Source: Candidatus Woesearchaeota archaeon (lineage in GTDB: Archaea > Nanobdellota > Nanobdellia > Woesearchaeales > SKGA01). Taken from it: DNA of 22,832 bases. Below are positions 7,299 to 14,000 of this stretch, piece by piece. Within the stretch, counting starts at the first letter, position 1; every line of letters begins with the position of its first letter. A model generated the notes under the pieces. The model worked only from the letters and a program-made list of their open reading frames with translations, did not search any database and was not told where the DNA came from. The translations under genes and the position numbers were made by a program. The DNA is taken from the NCBI GenBank assembly GCA_016926395.1, contig JAFGOT010000026.1, forward strand, positions 1 through 22,832. Direction: 5' to 3'.

Positions 7299-9383
7299 TT
7301 ATTTAGCCATTACGTCAATGTTTTTCAAATCAGTAACAACAACTTCTAGTTCAGAACCTTCGAAGTCATAATCGCTGTAGTCAGCTACAACGTATGATGC
7401 TCCTCGAGTGTCTTGAGCAGACCAACCAGCAACTAACATTGCTTGTTCGTCGTCGAACCATTTAATCATTGCTTTACCATCAGTGAAAGTTTGAGCAATT
7501 TCTTCATCAGTTGGGAAACCTAGAAGTTCTTTAGCTACACTGTTAACGTATGGACCACCAACAACAATCATTGGTTTACTTCCTAGAGTTGCTTCAGAGT
7601 CTAGCATACCTAGTCCTACTTCGATTGGATTAACCATGTAAGCAGAGCCAGTTGCAGCAGCAGCTACACTAGAGCCTTTTGATTTAACAACTAAAGTTGC
7701 ATATTCTCTTTCGCTTGGAACGGAAATTATGAAACTTGCGCCACTACCAAATTGACTATCAGGATCAGCTAATTTGATACCGTAATCAGTTTGGTAATCC
7801 CATTCTTTAGTACCTAGAGAAGTTCCACCATATTTGATGTCTTCTGCATCAGAATCATCTTGAGTACCGAAGTAGTCAAATGCGTCGTCACCAGCGTTGT
7901 AGATTTCAACTGTTAATGCTTCGTCTCCTGGAGCTACAATAGTGAAAGTGTTGTTACCAGCACCATCAAGATCTGCGGAAGGAGTTACTCTAACGAGTTC
8001 AGCATCGATTAAAATATCGAATGAACTAATAACAACTTTGATTTCATCGCCAGCATCTTCGTACCAAATACCACTTAAAGTGTTATCAGTACTATTGTAA
8101 GCTACGTATACAGTTTCAGCAGTTTCAGTTCCAACAGTGAAGATGTCACTATCAGCTTCGAATTTAACAACTTTGTAAGTTCCTTCATCGTTAGGTGCGC
8201 TTTCGCCATCATCTAAGAAGTAACTGTCATCTAAGGAGATTTTTACATCTTCATAGTTAGCTGCTAAACTTGCAAATTGTAGAGCTGCGTAGTCGTTTGG
8301 AAGAACAACTTCATCACCTAAGAATAGAGGTGCTTTTTCTTCAGCTGGAGTGTTGATGTCTAGAGTGTCGTAGTCTTTGTTTAATCTTAGACCAACGTAT
8401 CTGTTACCAGATTCGTTACCAACAGCCCATACCCAATCAGCTTCAGCGTCGTCATCAGGTTGACCGAACATTTCAGCAGGTTGACCATCAGTTGCAGTTT
8501 CTTCTAAGTCTGCACCTAATTTTAAGTTTGCAATGTTGTCGGATGCTCCTTCAATGTAGAATAGAGAATCAACTTCAACTTGGAAATCATCTGCTTCGTC
8601 GAATGATTGGGAATTACCATCATCATTGATAACTTTAGTTTGACCATCAACATCAACAATAACAGAAGTTGAACCAACTCGCACTAATTTAACAGTGTGA
8701 CCTGCAACGTTTACTTCATCACCTTCAATCATGGATTTTTCAACTGATGAAATAACAGTGAAAGAACCAGAACCAATACCTTCAGAGAAGTCAAAGTTGT
8801 ATGCTTCAACATTTTGTCCTAAGAATTTGAATTCAGCAGTATGAGTTGCGTCTGCGTTTAAAACTTCAGCATCTTCGAAATAAACTCTGTATTCAATTCC
8901 GTTTTTAGCAACAGTAACATAATCTTTACCAGCCGCATCTTCGTTTTGAGCAGGGTTAATCATTGTTTGATTAGCGAAGAAAACAATTTCATCGTGGTAA
9001 TCAACAGTGTCGCCATCAACATCAAAGTCAGAATCAACGAAACCATCTAGGTGGTTTTCTTTTAATTCAACATCAGCATTAGGCCATGTGTTGTTTAAGT
9101 AAAGGTTATCATAATCTTTACCGCCTTCAACTACAACTGAGTTGTCGCCAACAGAAACTGCTCTTTTAGCTTCAGCTTGTAAACTAGCTGCAATATCAAT
9201 TGCTCCTAGAACATCTGATGTAGCTGCGTTTGCACCAACTACAATTGCGCCGTTAAAAACGCCGTTATCATCTACAAAAGGTGCTGGATATTTACTTAGA
9301 TCAGCAAGTGCACCAACCATGGTAGTTGCTAATAAAGCCACACTAACACCAAGTGCGAATACTTTTTTTATACTTTTTTTCAC
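7299..9383 (-). CDS. S-layer protein (archaeal S_layer_N / S_layer_C type)
   Basis: Signal peptide MKKSIKKVFALGVSVALLATTMVGALA, N-domain DLSKYPAPFV...IVVGANAATSDVLGAIDIAASL, C-domain MIVVGGPYVNSVAKELL...MLVAGWSAQDT. Very acidic. GTG start with GGAGGTG SD at 9390-9396. Confidence 0.92.
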   Translation of the reverse strand: MKKSIKKVFALGVSVALLATTMVGALADLSKYPAPFVDDNGVFNGAIVVGANAATSDVLGAIDIAASLQAEAKRAVSVGDNSVVVEGGKDYDNLYLNNTWPNADVELKENHLDGFVDSDFDVDGDTVDYHDEIVFFANQTMINPAQNEDAAGKDYVTVAKNGIEYRVYFEDAEVLNADATHTAEFKFLGQNVEAYNFDFSEGIGSGSFTVISSVEKSMIEGDEVNVAGHTVKLVRVGSTSVIVDVDGQTKVINDDGNSQSFDEADDFQVEVDSLFYIEGASDNIANLKLGADLEETATDGQPAEMFGQPDDDAEADWVWAVGNESGNRYVGLRLNKDYDTLDINTPAEEKAPLFLGDEVVLPNDYAALQFASLAANYEDVKISLDDSYFLDDGESAPNDEGTYKVVKFEADSDIFTVGTETAETVYVAYNSTDNTLSGIWYEDAGDEIKVVISSFDILIDAELVRVTPSADLDGAGNNTFTIVAPGDEALTVEIYNAGDDAFDYFGTQDDSDAEDIKYGGTSLGTKEWDYQTDYGIKLADPDSQFGSGASFIISVPSEREYATLVVKSKGSSVAAAATGSAYMVNPIEVGLGMLDSEATLGSKPMIVVGGPYVNSVAKELLGFPTDEEIAQTFTDGKAMIKWFDDEQAMLVAGWSAQDTRGASYVVADYSDYDFEGSELEVVVTDLKNIDVMAK

Positions 9384-9573
9384 CTAAAACACCTCCGAGT
9401 GTTTATACACAAGGATTTTAATTTTTTTTATCAATCTCGTGAAATCCGATTTTTCCCGTGCGTGCATAGAGTTTGCAACAGAACCACGCAATCTTGCTTG
9501 ATTCCTCTTAAGCCTCCACACACACAGTTTTAGTGGAAAACCGAGTATGATGAAGAGAAAGTAACAAGATTGG

Positions 9574-9590
9574 TTTATAAAGTTTTCCCC
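9574..9590 (-). promoter_or_regulatory. BRE/TATA promoter of the S-layer gene, implying a 5' UTR of about 165 nt
   Basis: Minus strand reads GGGGAAAAC-TTTATAAA. The predicted TSS is near 9550. Confidence 0.55.
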
Positions 9591-10126
9591 CTATATTTAT
9601 AGTAAAAAGAGGGTAAATACAATACAGCGTCTATAAACCACGACAACCCTCAAATGGGCTTGTTACCACAACATAGTTACACACAAATTATCGCTTAATA
9701 AAACAAAGTTAAAAACAGAGACAAAACGCCCGTCTTAACAAGGTAAATCGGTAAAAAAACAATAAAAACCAAATCAACTGGACTTAAAGAGGGTCACAAG
9801 CACCAAAAAGGATTTAATTCGACCTTGACTAACGAAAGAAAGGTCAAAAACCCAATCTAAAAAAGTCAAACTTATTTATAAACATAGCTACTTAAGAGAG
9901 TTGAAAAAAATATTGAAAAAATGCAAAAAATGTTAAAAAATGCAAAAAAGTAGAGTTTTGTTAAAAATAACAAACAAATCGAAAACAACAAAATAAACAG
10001 AAATTAAACATAAGAAATTAAGAAAACACAAATTAAAGATGAAAGAAATAAAAGAGAATTTTAACACCAACTAAATTAAAATTTAGAATCAAATCAATAA
10101 AAACATCTCGATTGAATAAAAGAATG

Positions 10127-10170
10127 CGAAGCACAGGCAATGACATTAACATGTCAAGCCTTTAGCCTCG
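10127..10170 (-). other. 44-nt imperfect hairpin B; its 3' arm is the tRNA-derived repeat
   Basis: Minus strand: CGAGGC-TAA-AGGC-T-TGACAT-gtta-ATGTCA-TT-GCCT-GT-GCTTCG followed by CA. About 16 bp, including one G.U pair that only forms on the - strand. Confidence 0.75.
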
Positions 10171-10189
10171 ATTTAACAAAGTTAAATGC

Positions 10190-10233
10190 GAAGCACAGGA
10201 ATTCAATAATTAAAGATTATTGTTCCTTGCTTC
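10190..10233 (-). other. 44-nt imperfect hairpin A; its 3' arm is the tRNA-derived repeat
   Basis: Minus strand: GAAGCA-AGGAA-CAATAAT-cttta-ATTATTG-aa-TTCCT-g-TGCTTC followed by GCA. 18 Watson-Crick pairs with a 2-nt and a 1-nt bulge. Confidence 0.8.
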
Positions 10234-10245
10234 TTGTTAAGAAAC

Positions 10246-10329
10246 TGCGAAGCACAGGATTCGAACCTGCGTAGGCACTAAGCCAACGGGGCCTAAACCC
10301 GTTCCGTTTGACCACTCCGGCAACCTCGC
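10246..10329 (-). tRNA. tRNA-Leu (anticodon UAG), 84 nt, no intron, CCA not encoded
   Basis: Acceptor GCGAGGT/GCTTCGC plus discriminator A; D arm CCG/CGG with GG; anticodon stem ACGGG/CCCGT with loop TTTAGGC; long variable arm GGC-TTAGT-GCC; T arm GCAGG-TTCGAAT-CCTGT. Confidence 0.96.
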
Positions 10330-10362
10330 ATAAGAATTGCAACAACTAGAATAAAAACACCA

Positions 10363-10370
10363 TTTATAAA
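10363..10370 (-). promoter_or_regulatory. TATA box of the tRNA-Leu gene
   Basis: TTTATAAA 34 nt upstream of tRNA position 1. Confidence 0.6.
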
Positions 10371-10386
10371 ACTTACTTTTAAACAA

Positions 10387-10806
10387 TTAAGAAGAATGCT
10401 TTTTTAGAATAATCTTCTTTTTAGGTTGATCAAAAGTTATTTTAAACTCATCAAAAAAACCTTGACGACCTATTAAAATATCTATATCAAAAGAGTCAAG
10501 AATAACCATCACAGGAATATGAAATGAATAATGTTCATGAGAATTGGAAACCTTCACAAACATAGTGCTTCTAACACAATTGGCTTCACCACCAATACCA
10601 AATGTTGGTTCTTGTTCACCAGATAAATCTAAACCCAACAATTCAGCAAATTCCCTAGATATAACAGACAAATCTGCTCCCGAGTCAAGTAAAGCAACAC
10701 AATCCAAAGAATTCTCAGAACCTTCCAAAGTTAAAGGAATAGAAGGAGAAACAGCATCAGTATTATTTCTTCGAGGAACAGATTTATATCTAAAATTTAT
10801 TGCCAT
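10387..10806 (-). CDS. Retropepsin-like (clan AA) aspartic protease
   Basis: CVALLDSGADLSVIS catalytic motif, flap-like FGIGG, and the C-terminal ILIGRQGFF motif. Confidence 0.85.
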   Translation of the reverse strand: MAINFRYKSVPRRNNTDAVSPSIPLTLEGSENSLDCVALLDSGADLSVISREFAELLGLDLSGEQEPTFGIGGEANCVRSTMFVKVSNSHEHYSFHIPVMVILDSFDIDILIGRQGFFDEFKITFDQPKKKIILKKHSS

Positions 10807-10807
10807 T

Positions 10808-11002
10808 TTAAAATATCAAAGTTTTCTCATCAGGAACTTTAGTTATTAAAGGTCTAGAGTTAGGAAGTTTAGCTTTAGCTTCAGAATAGACTGCTTTAAC
10901 ACTTTTACCATGAGATACTACTTTTTTATTAGAAATAGCAACCCACTGTCCTTTAAAAGAAGACAAATCCATAGATAAGAAAGCAGAGTATTTAGTTTTC
11001 AT
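10808..11002 (-). CDS. DUF5678-like small protein
   Basis: FKGQWVAISNKKVVSHGKSVKAVYSEAK signature. TATTTAAA at 11029-11036 lies about 26 nt before ATG 11002, favouring this start over 11029. Its stop is 1 nt from the protease ATG. Confidence 0.75.
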   Translation of the reverse strand: MKTKYSAFLSMDLSSFKGQWVAISNKKVVSHGKSVKAVYSEAKAKLPNSRPLITKVPDEKTLIF

Positions 11003-11090
11003 CGTTATGTAACCTAATGATAAACTCATTTAAATAAGTTGCTAAAGAAAAAACGCAAATCCTACGAAATTAAAAAAAATAAAGAAAAAG

Positions 11091-14000
11091 TTAATTCTTC
11101 TCAAGAGAGATTACAAAAGTCCTGCCCTTAACTTTTTCTTCAGAAGTAAATTCGAAAGAGCCCGAACTCAAGATAGAATCAGTTCCAACTTTATCACAAA
11201 TAAGAGAACTATATTTTTCAATAATATCTCCAAGATCGCCTGTGACGCTAAGTTTTATGGAATCTTCTTTTTGCAAACCAGCAACTTTTCTTAAGTTTTG
11301 AATTCGTCTTGTTAATTCTCTAGCAAAACCTTCTGATTCTAATTCAGAGGTTACGGTCGTATCAAGATATACTTCCCCATTAGTAAAGGGCGCCATCACA
11401 TAAGGTGAAGGAACAACTTTAGTTATTTTGAAAAGGTCTCTATGTAAAACCCATTTGTCAATAACCACACTATCAGATTGGTTAAGAGTTTTTGTAACTA
11501 AATCCATATTCTTCTTAACAGCAGGAATAACATCACCAGTCTCAGTTCCAAACTCACCACCAAGAAGCTTGTAATCAATTTCAAATTCTAATTTAACATC
11601 AAAGCTAGATACAAATTCAATTTCTTTAACATTAGTTTGAGATTTAACTAAATCAAGAATATTTTTTTGTAGAGATGTTATTTTTTCACTTAAAACTTTA
11701 ACATTTGAAAGAGGCCATCTTACTCCCTGTTTAGCTTTTTCTCTTGCCGCTAAAATACCTTGAATAATCGTTTGTGCATCTTCAAATTCTCGTTCTAAAT
11801 CTAAATTTCGATAGCCAACTTTCGGCCAAGAATCAAAATGAACAGACCAAGGAGAATCATCGGTCTTTAAGAAATTTTGATAAATATACTCTGTTACGTA
11901 AGGAGCAAAAGGCGCTAGAACTTTAACAGTAGCATCCAATACAAATCTAAATACATAAGCAAGTTCTTTATCAACATCATTAGTTCGTTCTCTAATTAGT
12001 TTGATATACGTTCTTGAAAAAGTATTATTAACAAAATCCATTAAAGTATTCATCGCATGATTATATTCATGAACGTCAAGATGACTTGTAACAACATCAA
12101 TCATAGAATTAGTTTTTGAAATCATCCATTCATCTTCCAATTCAACAGCATCATGAACTTCAAAACCAGTTAGGTTAAAACGATCCATGTAATTTTGAAC
12201 ATAAAGAAATGAATTCCAAAGTGTTGTAAAAAATGGATTAATTTGTTCTTTGAAAATTGAAGGACCATATTTAATTGCATTACCAAGAGCATAAGAAGTC
12301 ATTGCTAAACGAACACCATCAACCCCAACTTCTGCAAATGTCTCCAAAGGTTTAATCATATTACCTTTACTCTTAGACATTTTTTCTCCATTTTCATCAC
12401 CAATCAAACCTGCAACAGCAACATTCTTGTAAGGAGACTTGTCAAACAAAATAGTGTTAATTACAAGCATAGTATAAAACCATCCTCGAGTTTGATCGAT
12501 TGCTTCGGAGATGAAATCATAAGGAAATGATTGCTCAAACAAATCTTTGTTCTCAAAAGGATAATGAAATTGTGCGAAAGGAGCGCTACCACTGTCAAAC
12601 CAACAATCAATAACTTCACTGGTTCTAGACATTTGACCACCACATTCAGAACATTTGTAATGAACTTTGTTAACAGTACCTAAGTGAAGGTCGTCAACTT
12701 GAACTCCAGATTTTTCCTTAAGCTCTGCAATACTTCCAATAACTTCTTGATGACCACAACCAGTCTGTTCGCCATCTTCAGAATCAGGCCCATTACAAAT
12801 CCAAATAGGAAGTGGAGTTCCCCAAAATTTATTTCGCGATAAAGCCCAATCTCTAGCACCTTCAAGCCAATTACCAAACCGCCCTTGTTTAATGTTATTA
12901 GGGAACCAATTGATAGTTTCATTGTGCTCAAGAAGTTTATCTTTGATTGCACTAACCTTGATGAACCAAGTATCTTTCGCATAATAAATTAAAGGAGTGT
13001 TACATCTCCAACAAAAAGGATATGAATGAACATAAGGAGAGGTTGTAAATAATCGACCAGTAGAATCTAACATCTCAATTATTTTTGAATCAGCATCTTT
13101 TACAAACAATCCTTTGAAATCAGGAACTTCATCAGTAAACTCCCCATTATCATCAACAGGATTTACAAAATCAATATCATTATCCTTACAGACAACATTA
13201 TCATCTTCACCATAAGCAGGAGCTTGATGAACAATACCTGTACCATCTTCAGTAGTTACATAATCAGCAGGAATAACTCTAAAAGAATTAGTTGCAACGT
13301 CTTTGAAATAATCAAACAAAGGAACATACTTTTGTCCAACTAAATCTTTACCAAGAACAGAACCTAAAATTTTTCGATCATCTTCTTCAAAATATTTTGA
13401 AACTAAATCTTCTGCTAGAACATAAATTTCTTTTTCCGATTCAACAAATTGATAGTTAACTTTTGGATGAACAGCTAATGCTAAGTTGCTTGGAAGAGTC
13501 CAAGGAGTAGTTGTCCAAGCTAAGAAAGTAACAGTTTTTTCTGATTTAATGTTAGCAAGTTTCTTAATTGATTCTTGATTAACAACAGGAAAAGTTACAA
13601 CAACAGTAGTATCTTCCACATCTTTGTAACCTTGAGCAACTTCATGACTTGAAAGAGGAGTTCCACAACGTGAACAGTAAGGAACAATTTTATGTCCTAA
13701 ATATAATAAATCTTTTTTATAAATTTCAGACAAAGCCCACCAGATACTTTCCATATAATCAGTATCTAAAGTTCTATAGGGTTTTTGAAGATCAACCCAG
13801 TAAGCGAGTTTTTCTGTTACATGTTCCCAATCTTTGATGAAAGTAAAAACATCATTTTTACATTCTTCGATGAAAGGTTCAACACCATATTTCAAAACAT
13901 CTTTTTTATCTTCTAAACCAAGTTTTTTTTCAACTTGAACTTCAACAGGAAGACCATGACAATCCCATCCACCTTTACGTGAAACTTTGTAACCTTGCAT

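Follow-up and report, generated by a model that had tools for sequence, protein, structure and literature searches.

Duplications of attachment (att) sites at archaeal tRNA genes are known from integrated elements of the SSV, pTN3, pT26-2, and PYG1 types (PMC8371274), and an element of Pyrococcus yayanosii places 21.4 kb between 44-bp repeats (PMC9897764). A casposon of Aciduliprofundum boonei also involves a tRNA gene; the target of its Cas1 casposase spans the T-loop region and the tRNA 3' end, with a 15-bp duplication that overlaps the tRNA by only 5 bp (PMC5137440). Here we describe a tRNA-Leu gene with the anticodon UAG, located on a 22.8-kb contig (JAFGOT010000026.1; 22,832 nucleotides [nt]) of a Candidatus Woesearchaeota archaeon, in which the last 13 nt of the gene are followed by two further exact copies, each preceded by a short spacer. 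The whole contig was analyzed and is referred to as the window; the assembly to which it belongs (here G000) has 1,016,835 bases with 32% G+C and is 82.5% complete. On balance, and with modest confidence, we favor the view that the locus is a two-unit array of small noncoding hairpin inserts, which enter the ends of genes by recombination, probably via a folded form, and duplicate these ends, with the number of units then changing by recombination.

The array shares several properties with archaeal integrase elements. In both, the direct repeat copies the 3' part of the tRNA and has its left edge in a tRNA stem-loop, the tRNA stays intact on the promoter side while the old end is pushed downstream, and several elements can stack at one tRNA. 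Integrase elements, however, comprise kilobases of DNA and an integrase gene, whereas the spacers here are gene-less stretches of 46 and 49 nt that each contain a hairpin core and an inverted target copy, and comparable inserts are also found at the ends and starts of protein genes. The 14- to 15-nt duplications at four tRNA cases match the 15-bp duplication of the casposon. Unlike the casposon, the inserts are accompanied by no Cas1 match in the genome, have no terminal inverted repeats, and are flanked by duplications of 13 to 82 nt that cover the T-loop to the discriminator base.

The tRNA-Tyr genes of the Escherichia coli tyrT locus reportedly have tandem 178-bp repeats behind them (the rtT region). 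There, as here, each unit starts with the 3'-terminal segment of the tRNA, and the arrays in two relatives of the present genome (G008 and G009) have exactly the tyrT layout. In contrast to tyrT, a single locus with near-identical units, the units in the window are dissimilar, each of them is a hairpin, and inserts of this kind adjoin about 40% of the detected tRNA genes as well as protein genes. Integron attC sites and the attP site of phage CTX, which is recombined by XerCD, are imperfect palindromes with bulged bases, in which one arm resembles the target and the other arm is its inverted copy. Like integron cassettes, the units described here end in an imperfect palindrome with a bulge or internal loops, stack beside one fixed site, and have both gene-bearing and empty forms. 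They differ from integrons in that no IntI-type integrase or attI/Pc platform adjoins the arrays and no GTTRRRY core is found; moreover, the repeat shared with the target is 13 to 30 nt instead of 7, and the targets are many instead of one.

Small, noncoding, multicopy intergenic hairpins are also represented by MITEs and by REP/BIME sequences, MITEs being bounded by terminal inverted repeats and by short target duplications of fixed length, and the NIME/dRS3 arrays of Neisseria alternate short repeats with variable blocks. Unlike any of these, the inserts described here carry tailored inverted and direct copies of the end of the neighboring gene, and they lack the terminal inverted repeats and the fixed-length duplication of MITEs. 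PATE/REP elements derived from IS200/IS605 insert without duplication, whereas the present inserts are flanked by duplications, and the genome contains no Y1 transposase match and only a subthreshold match to TnpB. A reading as a transposon with terminal inverted repeats was rejected, because the left end of an insert is not an inverted repeat of its right end. For every known system that was compared, at least one defining feature is lacking here, and no description of such inserts was found in the literature.

The tRNA-Leu(UAG) array and its hairpin units

The tRNA gene was matched over its full length (1-71) by Rfam family RF00005 at 47.6 bits, and its bounds from ARAGORN and Rfam are 10245/6-10329/30 on the minus strand. 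The 13-mer CCTGTGCTTCGCA is present in three exact minus-strand copies with start-to-start intervals of 59 and 62 nt and spacers of 46 and 49 nt, values that were recomputed and agree in full with the original prediction. The parts of the array, listed from the promoter side downstream, are the following.

10363..10370, minus strand: putative promoter, a TATA-like box (TTTATAAA) that precedes the tRNA start by about 35 nt, proposed by sequence reading only
10246..10329, minus strand: tRNA-Leu(UAG) gene, intact, class II with a long variable arm (ARAGORN and Rfam)
10246..10258, minus strand: 13-mer copy 1, the tRNA-Leu gene's own 3' end (3' strand of the T-stem, 3' strand of the acceptor stem, and discriminator A)
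10234..10245, minus strand: trailer of unit 1, 12 nt
10223..10233, minus strand: inverted copy of the tRNA end in unit 1, forming 11 bp and one bulged G with copy 2 (RNAfold)
10204..10222, strand not assigned: hairpin core of unit 1, a 19-nt palindrome of the CAATAATC..GATTATTG family that is also found at other loci
10187..10199, minus strand: 13-mer copy 2, closing the hairpin of unit 1
10171..10186, minus strand: trailer of unit 2, 16 nt, with a small hairpin of its own and similar to the flank after copy 3
10158..10170, minus strand: inverted copy of the tRNA end in unit 2, forming 6 bp (including one G.U) and then 4 bp with copy 3
10141..10156, strand not assigned: hairpin core of unit 2, a 6-bp stem with a 4-nt loop, unrelated in sequence to the core of unit 1
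10125..10137, minus strand: 13-mer copy 3, closing the hairpin of unit 2
10099..10124, minus strand: flank after copy 3

Copy 2 shares 14 nt with the tRNA gene if position 10200 is counted, and copies 2 and 3 share 15 nt, having two more downstream bases in common. Outside the 13-mer, units 1 and 2 align poorly, and neither the 46-nt nor the 49-nt spacer contains an open reading frame (ORF). When up to two mismatches were allowed, shuffled sequences averaged 0.14 matches to the 13-mer, and none of 100 shuffles reached three. The search of the whole assembly that the original prediction had proposed recovered the three copies in the window and no others, and no fourth, decayed copy with up to four mismatches was found near the array.

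Each unit is predicted to fold into one long hairpin with the repeat as its 3' arm (-16.8 kcal/mol, z of -4.44, for unit 1 and -22.8 kcal/mol, z of -4.72, for unit 2; RNAfold, 200 dinucleotide shuffles), and short units in general form a single hairpin with z values of -3.3 to -4.7. In each unit, a short trailer leads into an inverted, imperfect copy of the gene end; next come the hairpin core, which occupies the tip of the hairpin, and the direct copy. In unit 1, 3 nt separate the 19-nt palindrome from copy 2. The direct copies are exact, and the inverted copies are imperfect. The 13-nt inverted copy of unit 2 differs in its letters from that of unit 1, and its CGAGG corresponds to tRNA-Leu positions 2 to 6. 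The inverted copies are matched to their own targets. For unit 1, the cognate duplex has a predicted energy of -13.4 kcal/mol, compared with -8.4 kcal/mol for noncognate pairings, and in a set of 22 elements, taken from this genome and from relatives, the spacers pair with their own repeat at -9.6 kcal/mol, compared with -7.9 kcal/mol for other repeats (permutation p = 0.0004). Trailers of insert-free tRNAs showed no complementarity to the tRNA end (p = 0.17), a result that does not support the inverted copy as a native trait of every tRNA trailer.

Recurrence at other gene ends and in related genomes

The architecture recurs throughout the genome. A scan behind all tRNA genes, also proposed in the original prediction, found an exact 13- to 25-nt copy of the gene's own 3' end located 43 to 126 nt downstream in 9 of 25 tRNA genes and an upstream copy in none of the 25. 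Eight of the nine copies reach the discriminator base, that of Ser-GCU ending two bases short. At tRNA-Leu(UAA) the copy is shifted into the trailer, and tRNA-Met and an intron-bearing tRNA-Leu have decayed copies after the same kind of spacer; inserts lie behind roughly 40% of the detected tRNA genes (about 11 of 26). At every tRNA case, the T-loop contains the repeat's left edge. The insert class ranges in size from 40 to 130 nt, six inserts of identical internal order being 40 to 49 nt long, and the interval from 130 nt to 8 kb downstream contained no tRNA-end copies.

Protein genes are affected as well. A census of the whole genome that was blind to the elements, covering exact direct repeats (minimum length, 13 nt; period, 35 to 200 nt) and excluding low-complexity sequence, yielded 64 repeat pairs. 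Among them are 11 at tRNA 3' ends, about 10 on the stop codon of an ORF with 100 or more codons, and 2 on gene starts. Pfam confirms the identity of PCNA, whose 3' end is duplicated, and of GAPDH, whose start is duplicated. The first six codons of GAPDH are present twice at C11:3143-3260 (locus L133), and the start of another ORF is present twice at C29:1853-1976; in both cases the spacer holds a palindrome of the CAATAATC or CAAAAATC type and the real start is the downstream copy. Two more families of short hairpin spacers have flanking duplications of 22 to 82 nt, several of them at stop codons (C38:2965, C29:9514, C19:24227, and C17:39127 for one family; C38:7514 and C33:3784 for the other), and members of one of these two families carry pieces of differing length. 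A 30-nt repeat pair on contig C24 was considered as a CRISPR and rejected, having two copies only, which are the last codons of an ORF. The tRNA-Leu locus itself lacks the features of a CRISPR array, the repeat being 13 to 15 nt, compared with 24 to 48 nt in CRISPR, and part of the tRNA, with no Cas1 match in the genome.

Hairpin cores are shared between unrelated targets. A CAATAATC..GATTATTG palindrome is located 2 to 9 nt before the distal copy at Gly-UCC, Gly-GCC, Asn, unit 1 of Leu-UAG, PCNA, and an unnamed ORF. A variant core, CAAAAATC..GATTTTTG, with a compensating A/T exchange, is common to the inserts at three other tRNAs, which also share about 55 further conserved bases (a module of about 75 nt). 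With one sequence adjoining unrelated targets, this distribution means that cores have been copied between loci. The palindrome family was detected in 19 of the 31 genomes of the order, with 0 matches for a reversed control; its flanks often lengthen the helix with compensating changes, and it also occurs within larger multihairpin modules in many families of the order. Other spacer families are also present in this genome.

A conserved module of about 90 nt with several hairpins is repeated in intergenic sequence (loci L087-L112, from many families of the order) and is composed of a CAGAAATCGC..GCGATTTCTG hairpin, GAGCATGCTC, and the CAAAAATC palindrome, closed by ATGTC..GACAT; most of its copies do not adjoin tRNAs. 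The palindrome of the unit 1 type had 0 matches in viral contigs. An exact 19-nt palindrome, CAAAAATCTTTGATTTTTG, which is without an Rfam family, was found in phage-like IMG/VR contigs of 51 to 65% G+C (L054-L082), where TGG/TGT and GAC, together with variable G+C-rich hairpins, flank every occurrence.

The inserts have a consistent polarity. At Gly-UCC, Gly-GCC, and Ser-CGA, a genome-encoded CCA and a trailer resembling those of uninterrupted tRNAs come after the distal copy, and insert sequence comes after the proximal copy; the reverse arrangement, with the CCA or native trailer after the proximal copy, was never seen. As read from these flanking sequences, the polarity corresponds to the attL/attR topology in which an insertion enters the gene and supplies a new end.

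Comparison with relatives documents gain and loss between species. In G000, the last seven codons of PCNA are duplicated around a 40-nt hairpin spacer (C2:22596-22675, locus L119). A relative, G005 (locus L130), has a different, 35-nt insert at the same spot, with a repeat that starts within 1 to 2 nt of the repeat in G000, and the gene end is plain and without the palindrome in the eleven other relatives in which it is readable. Judged by this comparison, the insertion at PCNA is derived and recurrent. The two G005 copies differ at four sites, all of them synonymous third positions, and the distal copy equals the gene end of another relative, G003. We estimate the chance of four synonymous changes out of four under random change of a dead copy at about 0.002; both copies therefore resemble formerly functional gene ends, and one of the two is probably foreign.

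Eleven orthologous tRNA-Leu(UAG) loci from relatives carry none, one, or two units: a downstream copy is missing at six of them, and the other five have at least one unit. The arrays of G008 and G009 each consist of two identical units of about 104 nt, which differ between these genomes; identical tandem units show that the number of units changes by tandem duplication. Such perfect tandem arrays suggest a role for unequal recombination with the selected tRNA end in keeping the direct copies alike. In a sample likewise blind to the elements, which took 26 tRNAs from the remaining 13 genomes in the genus, 3 had a copy, compared with about 11 of 26 here. Metagenome contigs were scanned for strain variants with the 3' half of tRNA-Leu, with 0 matches.

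Cargo-bearing relatives of the inserts were also found. A 1.15-kb putative Fic cassette lies behind tRNA-Gln (C36:13812-15110), bracketed by repeats of about 75 nt that are composed of the last 7 nt of the tRNA and 68 nt of trailer. In another genome, G014, a cassette of about 0.9 kb is located at a tRNA-Leu (locus L011:730-1760). It contains an ORF and a complete tRNA-Leu(UAG) between copies of the 12-nt end that is common to tRNA-Leu(AAG) and tRNA-Leu(UAG), and it resembles a cassette that has entered the end of tRNA-Leu(AAG).

Proposed recombination into gene ends and the competing explanations

Under the reading that we favor, inserts would enter gene ends, above all the segment of tRNA genes from the T-loop to the 3' end, and the gene would stay intact because its end is then present twice. 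The insert may bring along a copy of the gene end and enter when this copy recombines with the gene end itself, which would create the attL/attR topology; the promoter-proximal copy would be the new junction, and the distal copy would be the old gene end. The direct repeats could then let units be duplicated, homogenized, or lost through unequal recombination. The folded hairpin, formed by the inverted copy, the core, and the direct copy, is probably the recombining site, a role played by attC sites in integrons and by the attP of phage CTX in its folded single-stranded form.

The original prediction was correct that no integrase lies in the window, which encodes no recombinase. Four tyrosine recombinase genes (PF00589), unlinked to the inserts, are present elsewhere in the genome (two on contig C30 and one each on C18 and C6), two of which encode the catalytic domain only, and the genome also contains a topoisomerase-IB-like gene and an IS91-type Y2 transposase. 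No match was found in the genome for Cas1 (PF01867), Y1 HUH transposase (PF01797), or reverse transcriptase, and the only match pertaining to TnpB, to PF07282, was below threshold. Contig C18 (2,599 bp; locus L005) consists of the IS91-type Y2 (HUH) transposase gene overlapping a gene for a 290-amino-acid tyrosine recombinase, with G+C like that of the genome, and its ends carry no hairpin cores or gene-end repeats.

A number of observations weigh against recombining hairpin inserts. No enzyme is linked to them, so the mechanism is deduced from topology alone; no hairpin cores or gene-end repeats were found near the four tyrosine recombinase genes, the topoisomerase-IB-like gene, or the Y2 transposase gene, and at 82.5% completeness the absence of a gene family from the genome is weak evidence. 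A double-stranded circle of 45 to 60 bp cannot recombine like a normal episome, and the insert would consequently have to move as single-stranded or hairpin DNA or within something larger. The inverted copy stays target specific even among inserts with one common core, a property not predicted by a simple cut-and-paste or fixed-att element. None of the tRNA-Leu(UAG) copies is followed by a CCA, so the polarity argument does not extend to the window. The duplications vary from 13 to 82 nt, with one insert family carrying pieces of differing length, and template switching during replication would fit such variation too. Finally, the first 18 nt of the flank after copy 3 are alike at 12 of 14 positions to the start of unit 2 (the trailer and the beginning of the inverted copy), and local duplication could thus account for part of the array.

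Several of these points suit an origin by local replication errors without any mobile element, in which replication forks would stall at gene ends and then, through template switching, fold-back synthesis, and tandem duplication, give rise to direct, inverted, and direct copies, the cores being templated from other loci or from preexisting terminator hairpins. Products of template switching in rearrangements of the FoSTeS (fork stalling and template switching) and MMBIR (microhomology-mediated break-induced replication) types have a layout of this direct-inverted-direct-like kind, and the arrays of G008 and G009 are perfect tandem repeats, as replication error would produce. We nevertheless regard this origin as unlikely. 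The same cores are found at unrelated targets on different contigs, the left edge in the T-loop is constant, and PCNA was struck independently within 1 to 2 nt in two species; the PCNA palindrome is absent from all relatives examined and is therefore not a preexisting terminator, and the G005 copies, differing only at synonymous sites, were not identical at birth. The inserts could otherwise be scars of ordinary plasmids or viruses that entered the tRNA 3' end by means of a tyrosine integrase and later lost nearly all of their cargo, so that attL and attR were left close together. Partial tRNA copies serving as att repeats, with the intact tRNA rebuilt on the promoter side, are standard in archaeal integrases (PMC8371274; PMC9897764). 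The CCA polarity fits attL and attR, tyrosine recombinases are present in the genome, and cassettes with cargo between tRNA-end repeats exist. Random deletion predicts broad sizes, however, whereas six inserts fall between 40 and 49 nt with one internal order; tRNA-end copies are lacking in the interval from 130 nt to 8 kb, no integrase remnant lies between the repeats, a target-specific inverted copy is not a known feature of att sites, and the same design is found at gene starts, all of which makes deletion scars quite unlikely. The integration scars or mini-cassette array of the original prediction are favored in a modified form, as small discrete inserts that are each closed by a copy of the target end, and are disfavored as ordinary integrase scars in view of the missing cargo, the clustering at 40 to 49 nt, the inverted target copy, and the hairpin core; the att decoys that it also listed received no support.

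The units might instead be functional RNA, cotranscribed with the tRNA as minihelices that resemble its acceptor and T-arm and that act as substrates of RNase P, RNase Z, or the CCA enzyme, as 3'-end processing signals, or as terminators. Both window units fold stably with two to three unpaired 3' bases in the manner of a discriminator, and their unlike 5' arms pair with the same 3' arm, one of them via a G.U pair that the tRNA itself has; at Gly-UCC, the inverted copy matches tRNA positions 1 to 9 in 8 of 9 bases. The first T5 run past tRNA-Leu is at 10099-10103, and with no such run before 10103 in the window, read-through into the units is plausible. The same design is present, though, at the stop and start codons of protein genes, and at Gly-GCC, Asn, and Ser-CGA a T5-T7 run opens the insert directly after the tRNA, where it should end transcription before the hairpin; both facts also weaken the repeated RNA-processing sites of the original prediction. 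The 22 elements show no consistent sense-strand advantage or G.U excess, the orthologous tRNA is without units in six relatives, and Rfam 15 gives only the tRNA in 9000-11200 (E up to 1) and nothing at the hairpins of 12 related or viral loci. A functional RNA is accordingly improbable. The tRNA-Leu array is neither chance nor a local oddity, and we assign a negligible probability to a chance repeat or an assembly artifact; the shuffles fail to reach three matches, the spacers are unique and structured, and an artifact is very unlikely because ten or more other contigs, as well as other genomes, show the same architecture. These parallels at many loci and genomes also distinguish the array from the isolated, decayed tandem duplication that the original prediction had allowed for.

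Beyond the recombining hairpin inserts that we favor lies a broader proposal, which we offer tentatively and with considerable doubt, namely, that the inserts are the footprint of an undescribed DPANN insertion system in which small hairpin DNA carries the inverted target copy as a built-in guide or att mimic and is recombined as a single strand in an integron-like or guide-directed manner by no known enzyme. A guide or att mimic would permit entry into many different gene ends, with the end being duplicated and the gene surviving. If the inserts are mobile, very small noncoding elements would have a route into extremely compact genomes that does not kill genes, by entering gene ends while bringing or creating a spare copy of the end. 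Such a route would bear on split and interrupted tRNA genes, on the spread of short terminator-like hairpins, and on the arrival of small gene cassettes, such as the tRNA-Gln cassette, at tRNA sites, and it may point to recombination that is programmable by base pairing. Copies of this kind can be misidentified as att sites of islands that have been lost or as fragments of tRNAs, and variable unit numbers could serve as strain markers.

Neighborhood of the array

Directly upstream of tRNA-Leu, an ORF of 139 amino acids (10387-10806, minus strand) matches retroviral-type aspartyl protease (PF13650; E = 2.5e-07). On the other side, 740 nt of ORF-free and very A+T-rich sequence (9384-10124) separates the array from an S-layer-like gene (7299-9383, minus strand) and is probably the upstream region of that gene. 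Within this A+T-rich stretch, motifs of the GCATTTTTT type are repeated at 9895-9985.

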